This document shows positions 3,071 to 24,690 of a stretch of DNA of 51,314 bases, one piece after another (within the stretch, counting starts at the first letter, position 1; each line of letters starts with the position of its first letter). The position numbers and the translations under genes are program-made. The notes under the pieces were generated by a model, which was not told where the DNA came from, made no database searches, and was given only the letters and a program-made list of their open reading frames with translations. Source of the stretch: a virus (taxonomy: Duplodnaviria; Heunggongvirae; Uroviricota; Caudoviricetes); IMG/VR virus record IMGVR_UViG_3300042259_000065; one strand, written 5' to 3'.

Positions 3071-6000
3071 ATGACAGAACGTGTAAGGAGTCAGTATACA
3101 AACTTGGTTAAGTTAAAGCTTGATCAACGAAGTTTGAAAAGGACTCGTAAACAGATACAAAACTTCAGATCTGAAGTTGCTAAAATGTTAAAACTTCAAG
3201 TAGATGTTGGAGGTTTAGGTACAAGTAAAAGAGGTTCTGGTTCAAGAATAACTAAACCTTATGAAGATAAAACTAAGTTCCAAAAAGCATCTAACACCCT
3301 GCTTGCTGACCAATTAAAAATTGAAGACAAATTAGCTAAAAAACAAGAACAACGTGTTCAAATGGAACAGAATGCACGTAGGAAGCAAGCAGTAGGTGGT
3401 TTAATATCTGACGGCACTAACAAAGCATCGCAAACGGCTTTTGCTGATATGCTACGCTCCGAAAACAAAGCTAAATCACCACTACATGATTCTCATGTAA
3501 GAATGCAACGTGACCAAGAAAAGTTTAATGCTTTGCAAGAAAAGTCAATTAGAAATTTCATGGTATCTAATCGTGCGATCAGGCAGATGAGTGATGAAGA
3601 GAAAGCAGTTCTTAAACAAAAACTCATGCAAGCTAAAACTCAAGAACAGCTTATTTATCTAATGAGAAAAGAACGTGCAGCAATCTCTGATACTCTTGCA
3701 CAGAATCGTAGATTAACACGTGAAGTAGAAAAGCGTAATGTTTTCCAACAGCGTATGAACTCTTCTGTAATGCAGATGGTTGGAACGCTCGGTAGTGCTT
3801 ATGCTTTAACAGCAGGAATTAGTTCTTCTTTGAACATCGGTATGCAAATGGAATCTATGCAGAAGAGTTTCAAGGTTGTATCAACTGATTCTAAAGCAGC
3901 AGCAGAGAATATAGCTTGGGTACGTTCAGAAGCTATGCGCTTAGGTTCTCCAATCATGGAAGCAAGTAAGGGTTTCTCATCTATGATTGCTGCTGCTGGC
4001 GACAAGATGACAATGGATGACCTTAAAGCTACCTTTACAGGTATTCAAGAAGCTGGTGTTGCACTGGGTCTAAGTCGGGAAGATTTAGGTGGTACAATCT
4101 TAGCTGTTAAACAAATGCTGTCTAGACTTTTGGGCAGGGTAAACTTCTTTAATTCAGGGGAACCCCTAACATTTTAAGATGAGGGCAATCCTGAGCGAAG
4201 GTTTCACTTAAAGTGATTCAACGTGCAAAGACTATTGGTGATGAGTGTAGCCAAGTAGGGTCAAGTGACTCGAAACAGGAAGCTGTACATTGTACAGAGG
4301 ATATAGTCTGAACTTCTATGGAGACATAGAGACGCAGGTAAAGCTGCTGGCTAAGCTTAACGAACTTAGTTGAACACATTGAAAGGTAAAATACAGGCTT
4401 GATTGTAGGTCTGTCTAAACTCCTCTAATTGCTGGAAACTCTGAAGGAATTAACTAGGATATTAATTGGTAACAATTAACGAACCCTGAAAATGTTAATT
4501 ATGATTACAGACAATCAGCATCGAAGATTCCTATTGGAATAACGATCAACGACTAGAACGAAAGTTCGTAGAGTATAAGTCACATATGATACTCGAAACG
4601 GGGAGCAATCACAAGATTGAAGATATAGTCTCGACTCTGCAGAGATGTAGAGCAGCAAGTAAAGTTGCGGGAAAGAGTTTGTGCCTCTTTTTGAAGATAA
4701 CGGATGAGCTTAATGTGTAGGTTCTTTCTGCAGAAATGCAGTCAATAAAACTAATTTAATTGCTGGAAAACCCTTAGAGCTTGATAATACTAACTTAGCA
4801 TGGTAACATAGCTAAGGGCAAGTGGTAATGCACTTGGTAGAGTAAAAAGTTATCAAGATTGGGCAATCAGCAGTCAACAATCTATAACTCGAAAACAGTA
4901 GAGGTATTATGTCTATTTTTATAAATAATGAAGAAGTTAAAGTGTGTCCTAATTATCCTAATTATGGTGCAAGTAAGGATGGTAATATTTACAGATTATC
5001 CACCAAAAAGCTTATGTCAAAGATAAAAGCTTATGATGGTTATTTAGATGTTAGAGTGTGTCATGATAATACCCCTAAGTCTGTCAAGTATCATGTAGTT
5101 GTGGCAGATGCTTGGTTACCATATGAAGAAGGTAAAGATTTTATAAATCATATAAATGGTGATAAATCTGATCCAAGAGTTTCAAATCTTGAGAGATGTA
5201 CTGGTGCGGAAAATCAGAGACACGCTATAAAAACGGGGTTGAAATCTAAAGGAGAAGACCTTTATAACTCAGTACTAACAAATGATAACGTACATGAGAT
5301 TTGTAAGTTACTATCGGATGGGATAACAGTTAAAAGCCTATCAGAGATGTATGGTGTGAGTAAGGATGTTATTAGGAAGATTAAAGATGGTTCCAATTAT
5401 CACTCTATTCGAAAGTTGTACTTAAACATCCCGCATAATTACCCAAATGAATTTTCAGAATCCACTATTAGGTGGGTTTGTGAGCAGATAGTAAAAGGTG
5501 TTGCAGATAACAATATTGCGAAGTCCAGTAACAATAAAAATTTATCATCTGCTGAAGTTAAAAGAATTAGACATAAAATAAGATATAAAATTATATCAGA
5601 TGAGTATTTCATAGATTGAGATTCAGAGACTATTCCGAAAGGAAGTAGGGTGTAAGTTAATGACACTCGAAAATATTAGCCCTAAACAGGTAAAGCTGAA
5701 GGTGAAGATATAGTCCGATCTATAAGGAAACTTATAGCAGCAAGTAAAGTTGCGGAGGTGGATTTACGAACCACCTCGAACACAATGAACACAACAACTG
5801 GGAGAAAGGGTGCCCTTTGCAATGCGAGCTATGGCAAAAGCCGCTGTAGATGCAGGATTGATTGACGGAAGTAAGACAGCTCAAGAACGTGAAGCTGCAT
5901 TGTTTAAATTAATGGAACAGGGTAAGTTAATCTCTGGTGATGTTTTACCATACTTTGGTAAAGCAATGAGTGAACTTGCTAACAATAATGACGAATTAGC

Positions 6001-16522: not shown

Positions 16523-17038
16523 TTAGTTATTATTATCAGGGTCTCTTCCTTCAGCACGTAAGCGGTTATGTTCATCAGCATGACATCTTGTACACAGCCA
16601 TATAACATCTAACCAATGTTCTTCCTCATAAGACCAATGATGAGCTTGAGGTTTACATTGCTTCCCACAACAACTACATTTTTCGGGGCGAATAATTTTA
16701 CCATATTTAAGACAACTGTTTACCTTGCATTGGGCTTTGTATTTCATAGGGTTTTGTTTTCTATACGCTCTTACCCGTTCCCTATCCTTTATGATAAATT
16801 CTTCGTCATTCTCTTTCCTTTTCTGCTGATACCTCTTTTGACAAGCTTCTACTCTTTCTTTATGATTCGGTCTGTTTCTGTCATACTCTTTGACCTTTTC
16901 TAAATTATCCAGTCTATACTGCCTAACCTTTTCTTTTCTACAATCCTTACAATTCTTATCATGACCTAATACTGTATTCCTAACAACATAAAATTCAGAC
17001 TCATCTTTAAATTCAAGACAAACTATACATTTAAACAT
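16523..17038 (-). CDS. Free-standing HNH (His-Cys) endonuclease
   Basis: N-terminal CxxC...CKDC Zn ribbon; C-terminal CSCCG...QAHHWSY...LDVIWLCTRCHADEH. Confidence 0.8.
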   Translation of the reverse strand: MFKCIVCLEFKDESEFYVVRNTVLGHDKNCKDCRKEKVRQYRLDNLEKVKEYDRNRPNHKERVEACQKRYQQKRKENDEEFIIKDRERVRAYRKQNPMKYKAQCKVNSCLKYGKIIRPEKCSCCGKQCKPQAHHWSYEEEHWLDVIWLCTRCHADEHNRLRAEGRDPDNNN

Positions 17039-17065
17039 ATGATATATCCCGTTTTTGGTTTAAGT

Positions 17066-17092
17066 AAAATAAAAGAGGGACTATGCCCTCTT
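17066..17092 (-). terminator. Terminator after the SSB-like gene
   Basis: AAGAGGG-catagt-CCCTCTT followed by TTATTTT on the minus strand. Confidence 0.7.
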
Positions 17093-17106
17093 AAAGTATT
17101 CAGATA

Positions 17107-18547
17107 TCAAAATGGAATCCTTTGTGTTCAGAAGGTATCGCAACTTACCTTCCCGTCATTATGACAGCTATATGTTTCCATATAGAGCAGACTATATCAT
17201 CAACTACTTGAGTTGCTGTGCGCTTGGGGAGCCATTTGCTTGCTCTCTACAGGGTTACACTCATCACCCTTAGTCGTTACACTTTCAACCACAGTTGTGG
17301 AAGCTTAGCTCGGATATTGTCTTCACCTTTACGTGGTCAGATGTCTACCGAATTCACACAGTTTTCGACATACCTCACAGTATGAAGCGACCTTATTGAT
17401 CGTCATCAAAGAACATTGTTGGTTCACTGGAACTGTAATCACTCTCAGAAGGTTTTTCCTCTTTCTGCACAGGTTTGCTTGCCTGAGAAGGTTTCTCTTC
17501 ACCACGAGCTTCCTGTTGAGGATTGGAGGGTGTTTGCGCAATATTTGCACCCTTAGCATCAAGAGCTTTCTTCAAATCAGAATCTTCCCAATTACAACCC
17601 AACCAGAAGTCAGGAGCTTTAACAGCATTAGGTTGGAAAGCTTTTGCACGAGGAAGCACACACATCAATTCCTTGCGGTGACTTACCCAAGATACAACAT
17701 CATCAGAATAATCACCACCATTTAGAAGTACACCATAGAATTCACTGTTACATTCTGGAATTTGGTCTTCACGTTTGATTACATTATCACCAACTTCTAC
17801 ATCAGAAATTTCTGAATGTTCAACAATAATTTCATTGAAGAAACGCTCACCTTTCTCAGCAACCAATGTGACATTACAAGCTTGGTTGGCAAAGACACCA
17901 ATATCATATTCTTTTGAATATTCATCGGCAATATTTAGAGAGTTAGCCATTTTCATCAGTGGGCTATTTGGTGAAAGTTTACCTGTACGGAAATTAGGAT
18001 TGAAGCGAAGGTGCTTACGCATATCCTCGATACCCATAGAATCAATCTTAACATAACCATTGAAACAAACACGAAGAGGTTTAACTCCAAGATGATGCAG
18101 TGCTTCAATAGGGTGTTTAGTCCAGTCAATTTCTACTTTAGGAATGTCGAAGTATAGTGCAAATTCTTGAGTTGGTCGCTCAGGTTTGAATTGCATACGT
18201 TTACCATCAACATCTTTGAAGTAGTTATCAGGATATTTTTCAACATGAGCTTTCTCTTCATCAGAGAGTTGGTCACCTTTGCCAGCAACACCTTTCCATT
18301 CATAAGAAGCATCTTGTTGTGGTTGCAAACCTAAGTCTGCAATACCTTTACAGATAGCAACATATTTCTTACGCTTCTGCATAATACCTTCACGAATCTC
18401 ACCATCAGCTTTAGTGGCTTGGACTTCCTTACCATCAAAAAGTGACCAGTAATATTCATTCCACGCTGTCCATGCTTCATCTGGAACTTGACTTGCAGAT
18501 TGACCACCAGTTGATGTAGGGATTTGTGGTTTCATTGAAAATGTCAT
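17107..18547 (-). CDS. ssb: Single-stranded DNA-binding protein, spliced: complement(join(17107..17118, 17399..18547)), 386 aa ending FFDDDIPF
   Basis: Replication-module context, long Pro/Gln/Glu-rich linker, and splicing yields the DDDIPF SSB-Ct tip. SSB identity is inferred from the tail and context. Confidence 0.75.
17119..17398 (-). ncRNA. Group I intron in the SSB-like gene (280 nt, no ORF)
   Basis: Minus strand: P1 CGAT/GTCG with U.G; P gtgaattcggta, Q caatatccgagc, R gtaacgacta, S gatgatatagtct; ends gaacacaaagG before ATTCCATTTTGA. Confidence 0.88.
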
Positions 18548-19148: not shown

Positions 19149-19580
19149 TTAGGTTAAGCCTTTCAACAAATTATGAATCTTTTCTGCACCGATAGGATTC
19201 TTACTATGCACAAAGTAGCCTTTCATTGGGTGAGGTATCAACCCGAGAGTTAAATAATCTTTAAGACACGTAGCGGCATCGTAACCTGTTCTCTCACCTT
19301 GTTCATCTTTTTCAGAGTATACATCACCAAAGGCTGTTTGTGCAATAAGAGTTCCTTTTGGTTGAATCCAGAAATCTTGCAAGTCATGATCGAAGCTGTA
19401 GTAATCATAAATATCTTTTTCCATTTCGTCAATGAAATCTGATACATTACGTACAACTTTCCAATCAATACCTTCTGGATAAGAGGCAGAACTTCCAAGA
19501 AGACTCCACTTTACATCAGATGGATTACGTTCATCATCAATGAATAAACCTTTGTACATATTATTCTCATTAATCGTCAT
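19149..19580 (-). CDS. Receiver-like domain protein (cyclic-phosphate-processing REC type)
   Basis: LFIDDERNP...WKVVRN...SFDHDL...TGYD...HSKNPIGAEKI motif set. Confidence 0.7.
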   Translation of the reverse strand: MTINENNMYKGLFIDDERNPSDVKWSLLGSSASYPEGIDWKVVRNVSDFIDEMEKDIYDYYSFDHDLQDFWIQPKGTLIAQTAFGDVYSEKDEQGERTGYDAATCLKDYLTLGLIPHPMKGYFVHSKNPIGAEKIHNLLKGLT

Positions 19581-20653: not shown

Positions 20654-20860
20654 TTATTCTTGCTCAAGGATTTCCCATTTGTCCATGTTGAAGGCTTTGT
20701 ATGGACGAACGAATAGTTTCGATGGAGAATCTACATTCATATATAAGCAGCCTTCTTCCCAAGAATCACCTACTTTGATAAGAAGATTATGATTGAGAAC
20801 AGTGTATGTTGCTCCGCGAGGTAGGTAGCGGAGAAGGGTGGCTTTGGTTAGGTTAGTCAT
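20654..20860 (-). CDS. DUF1653-like protein
   Basis: YTVL...LYM...LFVRPYKAF motif. Confidence 0.55.
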   Translation of the reverse strand: MTNLTKATLLRYLPRGATYTVLNHNLLIKVGDSWEEGCLYMNVDSPSKLFVRPYKAFNMDKWEILEQE

Positions 20861-21680
20861 TGGTGGTTTCCTTTAGATGGAAGGCTTCCATAACTTCTGG
20901 GAAGAAGTTTCTGTTTAACCAAGCTAACTCGCCTTTCTCTCTTTCTGCTACCTCATCATATCTGAGAGCTGCTTCTATGGGACAACTGAAGAAGCCGAGA
21001 TGAGTCTGTTTACTGTTATAATATAGATTTGCCCTATATGAACCTTTGGAATCAGACCAGCACACGCCCTTGTACTTCACCTTTCCCCAATGTTTAGGCC
21101 CAGTATTTATTGATTGCTCACCCAAGGTTATCCACCTAGTATTCTCTAAACAGTAGTTTCCAAAAGTATCTATCCTATCTAAGGTTAAACCCTCATCATA
21201 ACGGGATAGGTTATCCTCCATGAAGTTGTCAAGGTTCAACCACCTATCACAGACTTTGATACCTTTGCCACCATAATAAGAATATCCTTTAAAATCCTTA
21301 TCGTAGCACCTATTTATGATACCTACCCATGATTGGTAAAGTCGGTGACCAGAAAGGCCATGCTTAGTGTTCCCGATACCCTCCTTCTTACCATAACATA
21401 CGCCCTCTACATTAGTTATTTTGAAAACTACCTTGTCGTTATTCGTACACTTCCCACAAGAGGATACATTATTAGCTTTTAAGTTACAATACATCATTGG
21501 TTTGTAATTACCACACTCACAAGAACAAACCCACATACTTTTTGTAGTTCCATTTGGTTGTGTAAAATTATCAGTTCGATAAATGGCGGTGAGTTTACCA
21601 TAAACTTTGCCCGTGATATCTACACTATTCCAAGCCAAAGGCTTTTCTGGAAACCTAATTTTTAAATCCTCTATATTCAC
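20853..21680 (-). CDS. Free-standing HNH-AP2 homing endonuclease
   Basis: CSCECGN; HGLSGHRLYQSW...NRC...YGGKGIKVCDRW...LTLDRID..GNY..EN.RW; C-terminal AP2 (YKGV...HLGFF...AALRYD). Confidence 0.85.
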   Translation of the reverse strand: MNIEDLKIRFPEKPLAWNSVDITGKVYGKLTAIYRTDNFTQPNGTTKSMWVCSCECGNYKPMMYCNLKANNVSSCGKCTNNDKVVFKITNVEGVCYGKKEGIGNTKHGLSGHRLYQSWVGIINRCYDKDFKGYSYYGGKGIKVCDRWLNLDNFMEDNLSRYDEGLTLDRIDTFGNYCLENTRWITLGEQSINTGPKHWGKVKYKGVCWSDSKGSYRANLYYNSKQTHLGFFSCPIEAALRYDEVAEREKGELAWLNRNFFPEVMEAFHLKETTND

Positions 21681-21695
21681 AATATTCCCTCCTAA

Positions 21696-24690
21696 TTAGT
21701 GTGCACCACTCCAGCCCTCTTCAGGTGTTGCCATTAGATACTCACCTGTAATCGGGACTTTAAACTCTAACATCTTATAAGCATCTTCAATACACTTAAC
21801 CATTAACTCACCTGCCCGACAATAAGCCCTTGCAATATTGCCATTGTCTAGAACTTTTGTATTGCCAGAGAGGACAAACTTACCACCATTCAACTCCTTT
21901 GCAGATTTAGAAGCAGAGCAGACCTGATGCAAGTTTTCTAGAGTAATACCGTATTGAAGACAGATATCCTCTTCCGATTGATATTCTTTTTCCTTAGCTT
22001 TAGCTTTCTCAGCATCATCAACACTTTTCAGAATATTCTCTATGAGAGATTTATCATTCAACCCAGTTGGAAACTCTTTAAGACGGACTAGATTATCAGG
22101 TACTTGTAACTGGTACTCATCCTTTTAATTTTAGAGACGTTACTCTCTTTCCACAATTTCTTGCGTAATTGGATCATATCACAATCTGTAAAACAGATTC
22201 CCCGCTTTTCGAAATCCACTTGGATTCCTACGAACAACTATGTTCTGATCTCTGCACACCTTGCGATGCTCAGGATTGCCTTTGCCATTACGCAGTAAGG
22301 TTTCCCTGAATTAACGGAGTTTTTCGACACACCTCACGATGTGAAGCCACAATGAGTTTATGGTAGTAAATTATACGAGCTACACCTTTATCTAACAGTC
22401 CTTCCTCTAAAGCCCTCTCATGCCATAGAATGCCTGCTAAGTCCATACCGATTGCACCCATAGATTGTAGATAAGCATTAAGGAGACTATGCTTGGAACG
22501 AGTCCAAATCTTACGCTTATCTATACCTAAAATATAGCGTTTCCCTGTTGACTCCCAGAACTTCTCTAACCATTCTTTACACCCTTTAAGACCAAAGTTA
22601 GTATCCCAGAATGCATTAATTACATCTTGAGCAGCGTCCTTACTGATGCCCAACATAGCCGATACCTTAGCTGCTTGAGCGCCATACAGCACTCCATAGG
22701 TAATTCCTTTACCTTCAGAACGTGATACTGTTCTTCCTGCAGCCTTAGAATATGCTTTGGCATTCTCAGTATGGGGGTCCCCACTCAATCCACGATAATA
22801 AGCACCACCATCAAATGGGTAAGCAGCATTAGCAGCACAGAAGCCCTCTAGGTTACTTCCATCTATACCTACTTGCCAAAATCCCTCTGGAACAGTGAAC
22901 AATTCCCTCATTTCATGCCCTAAAAGAGCATCTGATCCGGGGATATTGGCTATGACGGAGTGTTTTCGTCTGTTTGTGTTGGTAAGTCCAGAATATCGTG
23001 CTGGAAGTTTACCATCTTTCTTGAGTCGAGGATGATTTAGCCAACCAGTTTCTTTAGTTTCATCTATAGCTTTAATAACTGAGCGTCTATTACGAAGAGA
23101 CAACCATTTAACAATCTTAGATGCCATTTCACCATCAATCTTTTCAAGATTGGGACAAAGTTCCCCTCTATCATCCTTAAGTTTAGGACTTGTTACCAAG
23201 AAACGAGACTTCTTGACAACCTTCTTGAAGTCTGGATGGTTTCTATTGGTAATCTTTTCTAGTTTAACTCCCATCTCTTGATTGATATAGGGCAGGTAAA
23301 TAGAGTCCCTTTTCTCCAATATATACTCCCAACAGGATTCCTCCACCTCAAAGTCAGGTCTATTTTGTTTATTATCGTCCCTAGAGACATCCTTGGTACG
23401 GAACAACGTAGGAACCCAATTACCATCAGTTACAAGCCATTGCTTGATATCGTCTTGATTTGATAGTCTCATTGGTTCGAACAAAAACTCCTCTGGGATG
23501 TATTTTTCTTCAAGAAGCTTTCTTGCTTTAACCTCATCCTCTGCCGATAGAATACTTGTAGATTCCTCCTTTTGACGTTGTGATCTAATGAAGTCTCCCA
23601 TTTGATCTTCATCTTCAACACCATGATTGACACAATATCTCTTTCCTGCAACAGATAATTCACCCGTTTTCTTAAATGCAGTTTTTGGAGGAGCTACAAA
23701 CTTCTGTGCATCACGATCAACTTCAATATTGTAATACTTCTCAATAAAGTTTAGCCCGTGGTGTGAGATATTACCATCTTTATCAAAAGGATTAGCTGGA
23801 AAATTAGGTTCTCTTGATTTTGGGACTCGTTTTGGGGGAAGTTTAGGTTCTACATCTTCCTCAATCTCCCGCATCATTTTATCGACTTTCTCAACTAATT
23901 CCCAAGCTTTATCCTCTCGGAACACTACACCCTGCTCTTCTTGAACCTGCATTAAGTGGTCAGAGAGGAGATTACGCTTCAAAGGCAATCTCCAATCAAC
24001 ACCTTTATCCTTTCCATCCTGCATTTCTTTAATTAAGAATTTCCATTGAAGTTCGTTGATTATTACGTCTTCCCATACACGATCAACATACTTCCATAAC
24101 GGGAGTCCTTTCCAATCTTCAATGGCAACCTTCTTGTTTGCAACCTTGACACCCCATGCCTCCAATGAGTGTGGTCCAATACTTTTTGCTTTTCCTCCTT
24201 GAGGGTTTTTAACTTTAGCAGGACATCCTCTTGGAAGAGGTCGGTCAGGATAAAGGCCACGAGACATACTAAGTGTATCATAGACTCTGATTTCCTTCCC
24301 ATTGATTTTCTCTACGGGAATTTTCTCGTATTTAGTCCCCAGCAGGTAATTGAATGCCAACATATCAAAACCTTCCAAGTTTTGACAGGCAATAGCAATT
24401 GGGTCTTTTACAATCCAATCATTAAACTCACTAAAATCATAGAGGTTTAAATTAACTCCTTTACCTTCTGCAAACTTCTTAGCTTCCTCAAACTCTGGAT
24501 GCTTAAAGTCAAGAAAGAGGTTCCAATTATTCTTTCCATACTCCTTAAACAATAAGGTGTGGAACTTAGAGATGTGGTCTTCATCTGCAATAGATTTTCC
24601 ACATAGACCATCACCTTCAGTGTCGAATATAAATAAGCCTTTCAATATACTTTCCTCTTTAAAATGGTTCATCTCCGTCTTGGTCAACAA
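21696..24690 (-). CDS. Family A (T7-like) DNA polymerase with 3'-5' exonuclease, spliced: complement(join(21696..22121, 22360..24690)); likely start TTG 24645, ~900 aa
   Basis: ExoI FDTEGD; motif A IDGSNLE; motif B RSEGKGITYGVLYG; motif C YYH|DEYQ restored by splicing. Confidence 0.92.
22122..22359 (-). ncRNA. Group I intron in DNA polymerase motif C (238 nt, no ORF)
   Basis: P1 CCAT/GTGG; 7-bp P10 ACTCATT/GATGAGT; P aattcaggga, Q gcaatcctgagc; P7 GATCA/TGATC; terminal G at 22122. Confidence 0.9.

Follow-up and report, generated by a model that had tools for sequence, protein, structure and literature searches.

A group I intron directly ahead of the terminal Ile-Pro-Phe codons in a probable phage single-stranded DNA-binding protein gene

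Intron position and predicted splice junctions

The window examined here is a 51,314-nucleotide (nt) stretch of viral DNA (IMG/VR record IMGVR_UViG_3300042259_000065; all feature coordinates refer to it), and its minus strand carries the gene for a probable phage SSB (a protein that binds single-stranded DNA). We consider it rather probable that a mobile IA-type intron lacking an open reading frame (ORF) has inserted in this gene between the codons for ...Asp-Asp-Asp and those for Ile-Pro-Phe-stop, and that the tip-less protein encoded by unspliced RNA is a by-product. The C-terminal tip of E. coli SSB docks partner proteins, and in bacterial SSB it docks every known partner. No other part of this fast-evolving gene is as conserved as the DNA that encodes the tip, which would account for the location of the intron, since highly conserved DNA is the kind of target exploited by homing endonucleases and introns.

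Exon 1 (17399..18547, minus strand; 383 codons in the ORF list) ends in ...EPTMFFDDD, and its final codons GAT GAC GAT (17407..17399) are followed directly by CAA TAA (17393..17398), with U17399 as the last exon base and C17398 as the first intron base. The in-frame stop in these first two intron codons ends the unspliced ORF (18547..17393, minus strand; 384 amino acids) in ...EPTMFFDDDQ, that is, ...SSSEPTMFFDDDQ followed by a stop. The intron, assigned from Rfam family RF00028, a consensus structure and covariation, occupies 17119..17398 (minus strand; 280 nt, ORF-less), and its 3′ end reads ...AAAGG, where GG is 17120-17119 and the omega G lies at 17119. Exon 2 (17107..17118, minus strand) is ATT CCA TTT TGA, encoding Ile-Pro-Phe-stop, and the predicted spliced protein would end in FFDDD-IPF (...EPTMFFDDDIPF). 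A terminator-like hairpin with a T run (17073..17092, minus strand) starts 15 nt past the exon 2 stop, and the terminator is thus placed after exon 2, not after exon 1.

An earlier note on this DNA had described a 280-nt group I intron right after GAT-GAC-GAT, an exon 2 of only ATT CCA TTT TGA and an unspliced ORF ending in FFDDDQ. Its coordinates and length are correct on the minus strand, and both of the endings are present in the sequence. The note was also right that the intron ends in GG, that splicing at the first G would give DDD-DSILISEYFKRA and a stop, and that the unspliced message encodes a near-full-length protein without the tip only, the ORF being complete apart from three residues. 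The FFDDD-IPF terminus that it gave for the spliced product is backed by the homologous introns and intron-less alleles described below. Opposite the intron, the plus strand holds ORFs at 17112-17273, 17218-17385 and 17333-17725 that are probably spurious.

In the mechanism that we propose, the ribozyme would fold after transcription, from P1 to P9.2, and cleavage would occur after U17399, aided by the U.G pair of P1. Exon 1 would then be ligated to the 12-nt exon 2 after the terminal G17119, giving the predicted junction GATGACGAT / ATTCCATTT, in which ...GATGACGAT is joined to ATTCCATTTTGA. The spliced message would encode ...EPTMFFDDDIPF, which is the bacterial SSB C-terminal tip. Ribosomes on unspliced RNA would halt at the in-frame UAA two codons into the intron and release a tip-less ...DDDQ protein, which is most likely a by-product kept small by efficient splicing and not a designed isoform.

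Ribozyme structure and conservation

The RF00028 model matches 17421..17168 at 58.8 bits (E 1.8e-12), above its gathering score of 50. In many Vibrio myoviruses (about 130 kilobases), the homologue of this gene has a related intron at its end, and for comparison we used five homologous introns, from phages 355E48.1, PS17B-2, 495E54-1, eugene 12A10 and 1.063.O, together with that of the window (six sequences). The exon ends are invariant in all six, reading TTTGATGACGAT before the intron and ATTCCNTTTTRA after its final GG, and the proteins of these intron carriers are only 24-30% identical to that of the window. An in-frame stop falls at intron codon 1 or 2 in all six sequences of this lineage and within codons 1-3 in 10/10 related introns examined. 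All ten of the latter end in a G, equivalent to G17119 of the window, directly before (GAY)ATHCCN.

RNAalifold run on the six sequences placed a U.G pair at the proposed 5′ splice site and recovered P2, P3, P9, P9.1 and P9.2; the P7 pseudoknot was added to the consensus by hand before pairing was tested. Standard pairs form in 95.9% of cells, as opposed to 33-44% when the partners are slid by 1-3 columns, and pairs changed on both sides (compensatory) number 24 versus 0-4 in the slid controls. Of 500 shuffles, a single one came up to the observed value on one of the five measures, and on the other four no shuffle did so.

The P1 helix (17388..17402, minus strand; alignment columns 9-13 with 21-25) is 100% paired in the six sequences. 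Exon bases C17402-G17401-A17400-U17399 and intron base C17398 pair with G17392-G17391-U17390-C17389-G17388, and the wobble pair U17399.G17391 at the 5′ splice site is invariant (6/6). P3 comprises 7 base pairs and P7 comprises 5, with one compensatory pair each. The 5′ strand of P7, GACUA (17271..17275, minus strand), pairs with 17194..17190, and its compensatory change is from U-A to C-G in 355E48.1; the 3′ strand, UAGUC (17190..17194, minus strand), is part of helix 10 of the consensus structure. The P9 hairpin (17168..17185, minus strand; helix 16) has two pairs with compensatory changes, and the Rfam model stops there. Beyond it, at 17131..17167 on the minus strand, lie two 3′ peripheral hairpins outside the model, P9.1 (17167..17153) and P9.2 (17152..17131; helix 18, compensatory changes in 4/6 pairs), which fill the 49-nt stretch up to the proposed 3′ splice site. 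The comparison thus supports the assignment of the element as a group I intron with splice junctions as proposed. A separate observation concerns its P7-P9 segment (17159-17209, minus strand), which has 93-100% identity over 34-44 nt to introns of Staphylococcus Twort/K-like and Enterocloster phages, a remarkable conservation across very distant hosts.

The gene tail in intron-less and intron-bearing relatives

Some intron-less relatives of exon 1 are 94-96% identical to it, and the tails of intron-less relatives place Ile-Pro-Phe or a variant of it at the predicted junction. The intron-less phage vB_CoeS_P1 (94% identical) ends in ...FEDDDWSDSIPF and a stop, and the intron-less Pseudoalteromonas phage J2-1 ends in ...QDDVPF and a stop. 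Among 39 close cluster representatives, 29 end in [IVC]PF and 8 are cut at FDDDQ, FDDK, FDDM, FDDDNL, FDDDTL or FDDD. A profile search of 1.8 billion proteins gave 145 representatives, 80 of which end in [ILVMC]PF and 19 in another x-x-F. All 14 IMG/VR loci are intron-less, and ten end in [IV]PF. Intron-less homologues do end in IPF or VPF, and the outcome that the earlier note had named as refuting, no IPF at this position, did not arise.

The micro-exon itself, (GAY) ATH CCN TTY stop, is kept in nine other intron-bearing alleles. It varies at synonymous sites only (ATT/ATC/ATA, CCA/CCT/CCG and TTT/TTC, with TGA, TAA or TAG as the stop), which argues that it is translated. The residues appended in the unspliced forms are not conserved, being Q, none, K, M, NL or TL.

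Two variants of the tail stand apart from this pattern. Five family members (P0026, P0054, P0090, P0114 and P0125) run past the tip with a related hydrophobic extension (e.g. ...EDIPF-SPVGLQYPQLLLSM and ...APYGLQYPNLLLSC), for which a second docking motif, read-through and a translated inserted element are candidates. The most distant relatives (L122-L125 and proteins such as P0093, P0165 and P0172), with about 22% identity and roughly 310 amino acids, have no terminal IPF; in their acidic tails an N/D-P-F stands internally and further acidic residues come after it (e.g. ...DDVNPFDLGDE), which may be a variant tail grammar. Two scans of IMG/VR were also made. One for an exon-intron junction pattern returned 97 matches, all of them chance and the pattern too loose, and one for a specific 19-nt intron signature returned 0 matches.

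Several points weigh against the explanation proposed here; those on the intron are gathered in this paragraph, and those on the neighbouring endonuclease gene, the protein and the tip-less product stand with these subjects below. The boundaries drawn by Rfam differ from ours, with P1 shifted and carrying two mismatches, and a 3′ end (17168) that comes 49 nt too early. Its ends (5′ site after ATGTT, 3′ end 17168) would give ...TMF-CHNDGKVSCDTF and a stop, or DDD-LS and a stop, and we rejected them, as the junctions are set at DDD/IPF by the homologous introns and by the alleles without an intron. P1 is short, with four exon pairs and one intron pair. P10 amounts to at most 3 base pairs between the loop AAU (17397-17395) and the AUU of exon 2 (AGU/AUU in two phages), a weak pairing that was read by eye. 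Splicing itself we infer from conservation alone, for which the synonymous-only variation of the micro-exon is the strongest indirect evidence.

Splicing predicted from sequence, together with the short P1 and P10, leaves room for the reading that the intron is dead, that the gene now ends in ...DDDQ and that the IPF micro-exon is a relic. All core helices, though, are intact and kept by compensatory changes across phages. The 12-nt micro-exon has been kept with synonymous changes only in alleles whose proteins are 24-30% identical, and the terminator follows exon 2, not exon 1. We regard a non-splicing intron as extremely unlikely.

A second intron lineage and other introns in the window

Four of the cut-off homologues were examined on their contigs (L008, L009, L010 and L011). 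The group I intron of L008 and L009 is of another type (Rfam 53.7 and 51.6 bits) and is inserted one codon earlier, so that ...FDD is followed by the intron and then by GAC ATC CCA TTC TAG, which encodes DIPF and a stop. The intron of L011 is related to the L008/L009 type by alignment, has no Rfam match on its own and has the junction FDDD/IPF before the stop; L010 carries the same intron type, and its contig ends within the intron. Phages IBT_VpB-34, S4-7, 1.187.O and P018-4 likewise have this second lineage at the tail of their homologous gene, and relatives of it lie at other sites in the DNA polymerase genes of PS17B-2, 5P1b, 5P1c and 249E41-1, which belong to the same phage group. Two lineages, two sites and the polymerase-gene relatives indicate that the tip-coding DNA has been invaded more than once and that the introns move between genes.

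The window itself holds five RF00028 matches, namely that in the SSB-like gene, three within the tape-measure gene and one, below threshold, in the gene for the polymerase. The tape-measure matches lie on the plus strand at 4045-4331, 4351-4652 and 5600-5737 (77.8, 72.6 and 34.8 bits). The tape-measure ORF spans 3071..4177 (Pfam TMP_3), the first two intron matches are only 19 nt apart, and an HNH_3 ORF (4909..5619) lies between the second and the third. The family A DNA polymerase ORF (24690..22288) has the sub-threshold match (22150-22369, minus strand; 47.5 bits, E 4.5e-9) at its 3′ end. A 121-amino acid ORF at 22061..21696 may be the next exon, and an AP2-domain protein is encoded just downstream (21680..20853).

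Cassette exchange and the neighbouring HNH gene

Directly downstream of the SSB-like gene, 69 nt beyond exon 2, lies a free-standing gene for an HNH endonuclease of 171 amino acids (16523..17038, minus strand; phrog_2340). Comparison with vB_CoeS_P1 shows that the intron and most of this gene form one cassette. The window and vB_CoeS_P1 are 94.5% identical from 18700 to 17437, identity breaks off 38 nt before the splice site, and it resumes at 16647 inside the HNH gene. The 789-nt segment between these blastn breakpoints (17437 and 16647), at 16648..17436 on the minus strand, is missing from vB_CoeS_P1. It takes in the intron, exon 2 and the terminator, with the last 38 nt of exon 1 before them and the first 130 HNH codons after. 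In its place the vB_CoeS_P1 counterpart (L001 2662-3508) has a different tail-coding segment and an unrelated HNH gene.

Of the window's HNH gene, phage vB_CoeS_P1 also retains the last 40 codons as a 95%-identical remnant, which suggests that its intron-less state is secondary. Its tail, DDD-WSDS-IPF, breaks up the DNA of the insertion site, as an endonuclease-resistant allele would. The nearest complete genome to the window (G001) is intron-less at the SSB-like gene as well. The slot that separates the SSB-like gene from the tail-fibre gene seems to be a hot spot where endonuclease cassettes are exchanged.

A tblastn search with the window's HNH protein gave no match at the five other intron-bearing loci of the same lineage, the only match being the remnant in vB_CoeS_P1; a Pfam search of the genes downstream of the other intron-bearing alleles gave only one weak HNH, in L004. 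As the HNH gene was not found beside the other intron-bearing alleles, it is tied to the intron by adjacency only, and a role for it would be inferred from that position. The patchy distribution of the intron, its two lineages and two sites, the relatives in polymerase genes, the cassette swap and the five introns of the window all argue for a selfish mobile element.

The interrupted protein

The protein is likely the SSB of the phage, as judged from an OB-fold model, an acidic tail, the tip, the genomic context and the lack of a canonical SSB in G001. An AlphaFold2 model built from 40 sequences has a mean predicted local distance difference test (pLDDT) score of 81.5, with values above 90 at residues 19-334 and below 50 at residues 335-384. 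The predicted layout is an OB-fold core (residues 19-334) followed by a disordered acidic tail of about 50 residues from 335, and the core of this 384-amino acid protein contains large insertions. When the model was compared with 48,161 chains using VIA-align, PrgE of plasmid pCF10 ranked first (Z 6.6, 110/128 residues aligned), and RPA70, Teb1, Cdc13, cold-shock domains and baculovirus LEF-3 came next at Z 3-4. All of the highest-ranking structures are OB-fold proteins that bind single-stranded DNA. A DUF669 cluster of the ESM Atlas gave a template modelling (TM) score of 0.58 (normalised by that protein) over 134/166 residues, and Foldseek against the AlphaFold database (AFDB) and language-model features also touch DUF669, weakly. 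PrgE is an OB-fold protein that binds single-stranded DNA (PMC11137577). In a published prediction, DUF669 proteins are diverged OB-fold SSBs whose tails are acidic and which are found in phages without other SSBs (PMC4889955); one of them has been shown experimentally to be an SSB, and prophage members carry DDDIPF (PMC13687109). The protein is most likely a diverged OB-fold protein whose nearest structural neighbours are PrgE and the DUF669-type SSBs.

The tail and the context point the same way. The tail of family member P0035 equals that of E. coli SSB, NEPPMDFDDDIPF, over 13 residues (PDB 1EQQ and 4MZ9). The PDB also holds myosin-2 constructs (2XEL, 2JHR and relatives) that end with the SSB tail (...SNEPPMDFDDDIPF), apparently as a tag, and a search by the tail alone will therefore return them although they are unrelated. 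The gene shares its strand and its module with genes for a family A polymerase (PolA), a DnaB-like helicase and an RNase H. Between it and the polymerase module is a gene for a 143-amino acid protein (19149-19580, minus strand) with a cREC_REC domain (cyclic-phosphate processing receiver; E 5e-16). Statements on whole genomes rest on G001, which has 37% of sampled words in common with the window; no PF00436 SSB was found there in a search with a working positive control.

By sequence the protein is outside every named SSB family. The only PHROG assigned is phrog_2544, of unknown function, and ten distant relatives fall in phrog_2544 likewise. The query and its 39 relatives do not match the PF00436 SSB OB-domain profile even at E 10, no profile match to DUF669 (PF05037) was found, so that the resemblance is in structure and features only, Foldseek against the PDB returned nothing at E 0.001 or better, and a sequence-profile search of the PDB gave a chance INO80 match only. 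The adverse points on the protein are that Pfam gave no family for the query, its 39 relatives (E 10) or the ten distant relatives; that the structural Z scores are all below 8, a range in which chance arrangements are common; that hhalign of the family against N4 SSB gave a probability of 0.3% and no link; and that searches of G001 for gp32, gp2.5-type and DUF669 families gave no matches, which is uninformative as the controls were silent too. The earlier note had called the protein an SSB, and this holds as a probable identity on the strength of the model, tail, tip, context and G001, while membership in an SSB sequence family does not.

These results leave some place for the protein being of another OB-fold kind, for instance a decoy or a mediator of recombination, that mimics the tip of the host SSB without being the replicative SSB. 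The mimic would serve to catch or divert host enzymes that interact with SSB; the account of the intron would be unchanged. Such a protein would fit the lack of sequence membership in any SSB family, the large size (384 amino acids) and the big insertions in the OB core. Gp63, a DUF669 SSB, works together with a partner ATPase in recombinational repair, and mimicry of the host tail has been proposed for prophage DUF669 proteins (PMC13687109). On the other side, the nearest complete genome has no canonical SSB for the replicative job, the gene sits beside polymerase, helicase and RNase H genes, and the standard layout of an SSB is an OB core that continues into a long disordered linker and ends in an acidic tip. 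We consider a role other than replicative SSB unlikely.

The tip-less product

The earlier note had proposed that splicing could act as a switch between two isoforms. In such a switch, splicing efficiency would be tuned by time, growth state or translation rate, and the phage would make both a tip-bearing SSB for partner recruitment and a tip-less one limited to coating DNA; the intron would gate a motif for protein-protein interaction. The idea is physically reasonable since, if bacterial SSB is a guide, the tip-less form would coat DNA and recruit no partners. The unspliced ORF is complete apart from three residues, and every related intron stops within its first three codons, so that a stable near-full-length product would arise in all of them. 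Coupled transcription and translation must also bring some ribosomes to the junction before the 280-nt ribozyme is finished. Sandegren and Sjoberg reportedly described in 2007 that splicing of T4 introns depends on translation and growth state.

The distribution of the intron, however, does not look like that of a switch. Most family members, including the 94%-identical phage and 14/14 IMG/VR relatives, are intron-less and have the full-length form only, and where the intron occurs its patchiness follows the logic of mobile elements (two lineages, two insertion sites, a cassette swap). The amino acids that the unspliced form gains show no conservation. An in-frame stop early in the intron is usual for phage group I introns whatever their position, T4 td being an example, and the early stop is for that reason no evidence of isoform design. 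The isoform switch thus finds no support in the computed evidence and is disfavoured; we give it only a small chance. As a last adverse point for a mere by-product, the phage may make some use of incomplete splicing.

One form that such use could take is a kinetic gate, in which splicing would race against the first ribosomes, and the resulting ratio of tip-bearing to tip-less SSB would time partner engagement. We think this improbable. If it were true, a self-splicing intron would be a post-transcriptional regulator of a three-residue docking peptide, and would bear on the timing of host or phage partner engagement, for instance by setting early apart from late, or fast-growing from slow-growing hosts. 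The unspliced product looks stable and differs from the spliced one by a defined functional peptide, and any physiological effect of splicing efficiency is therefore directly testable.

Novelty and significance

The ribozyme is of a standard kind; the gene that carries it, the position in that gene and the 12-nt 3′ exon are new. A full-text literature search found no description of an intron in a phage SSB tail, and GenBank records have a bare "Intron_gpI" beside a cut-short coding sequence (CDS), or nothing. Annotation is affected accordingly: at least about 30 GenBank Vibrio phage genomes, and 8/39 of the close protein clusters, list the protein without its last three or four residues. Several GenBank records also place spurious "hypothetical proteins" across the ribozyme (e.g. 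L004 1579-1851 and L005 1581-1973, both minus strand) and have the SSB-like CDS ended at the in-intron stop.

The family phrog_2544 numbers at least 145 clusters (50% identity), occurs in phages of Vibrio, Pseudoalteromonas and Pseudomonas, and gains a testable function as a non-canonical OB-fold SSB carrying the tip of the host SSB. The roughly 20 nt encoding DFDDDIPF are a recurrent landing site for two intron lineages at two positions, and they show cleanly how selfish elements home in on that DNA of a gene which is under the strongest constraint. Since different HNH genes swap in the same slot, the landing site may mark a locus of phage-phage competition.

Comparison with known systems

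The phage IA introns of T4 (td, nrdB and nrdD) and of the Staphylococcus Twort/K-like phages are the closest known relatives in kind. They share with the window's intron the family (RF00028), small size and lack of an ORF, as well as the 5′ U.G pair, the terminal G, the P9.1/P9.2 hairpins, an in-frame stop just inside the intron and a conserved site in a DNA-metabolism gene. The window's intron differs in lying in another gene, three codons before the stop and with a 12-nt 3′ exon, and it is known here from sequence. Because it lies only three codons before the stop, its unspliced message encodes an almost complete protein and not a fragment.

Zeng, Bonocora and Shub are said to have described "collaborative homing" in 2009 for cyanophage psbA and for T3/T7-like phages. 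The likeness lies in an ORF-less intron with an HNH gene 69 nt past exon 2, in one cassette that is missing from a 94%-identical phage. A difference is that the window's HNH gene has no counterpart beside the five other introns of the same lineage that were examined, and the intron-less relative has a different HNH gene in the slot.

On the protein side, the window protein has no match to the PF05037 model, its core is about twice as long as that of the DUF669/PrgE-type SSBs and has large insertions, and the hhalign comparison with N4 SSB was negative. These SSBs are nevertheless its nearest structures, they share the acidic flexible C-terminus, and they include prophage members with DDDIPF (PMC13687109); DUF669-type SSBs occur in phages without a canonical SSB (PMC4889955). 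E. coli SSB differs in its DNA-binding core, which is the PF00436 OB domain that the window protein lacks. The two are alike at the other end, where E. coli SSB finishes in ...MDFDDDIPF, family members of the window protein carry NEPPMDFDDDIPF, and the spliced window protein would end in EPTMFFDDDIPF after a long disordered linker.

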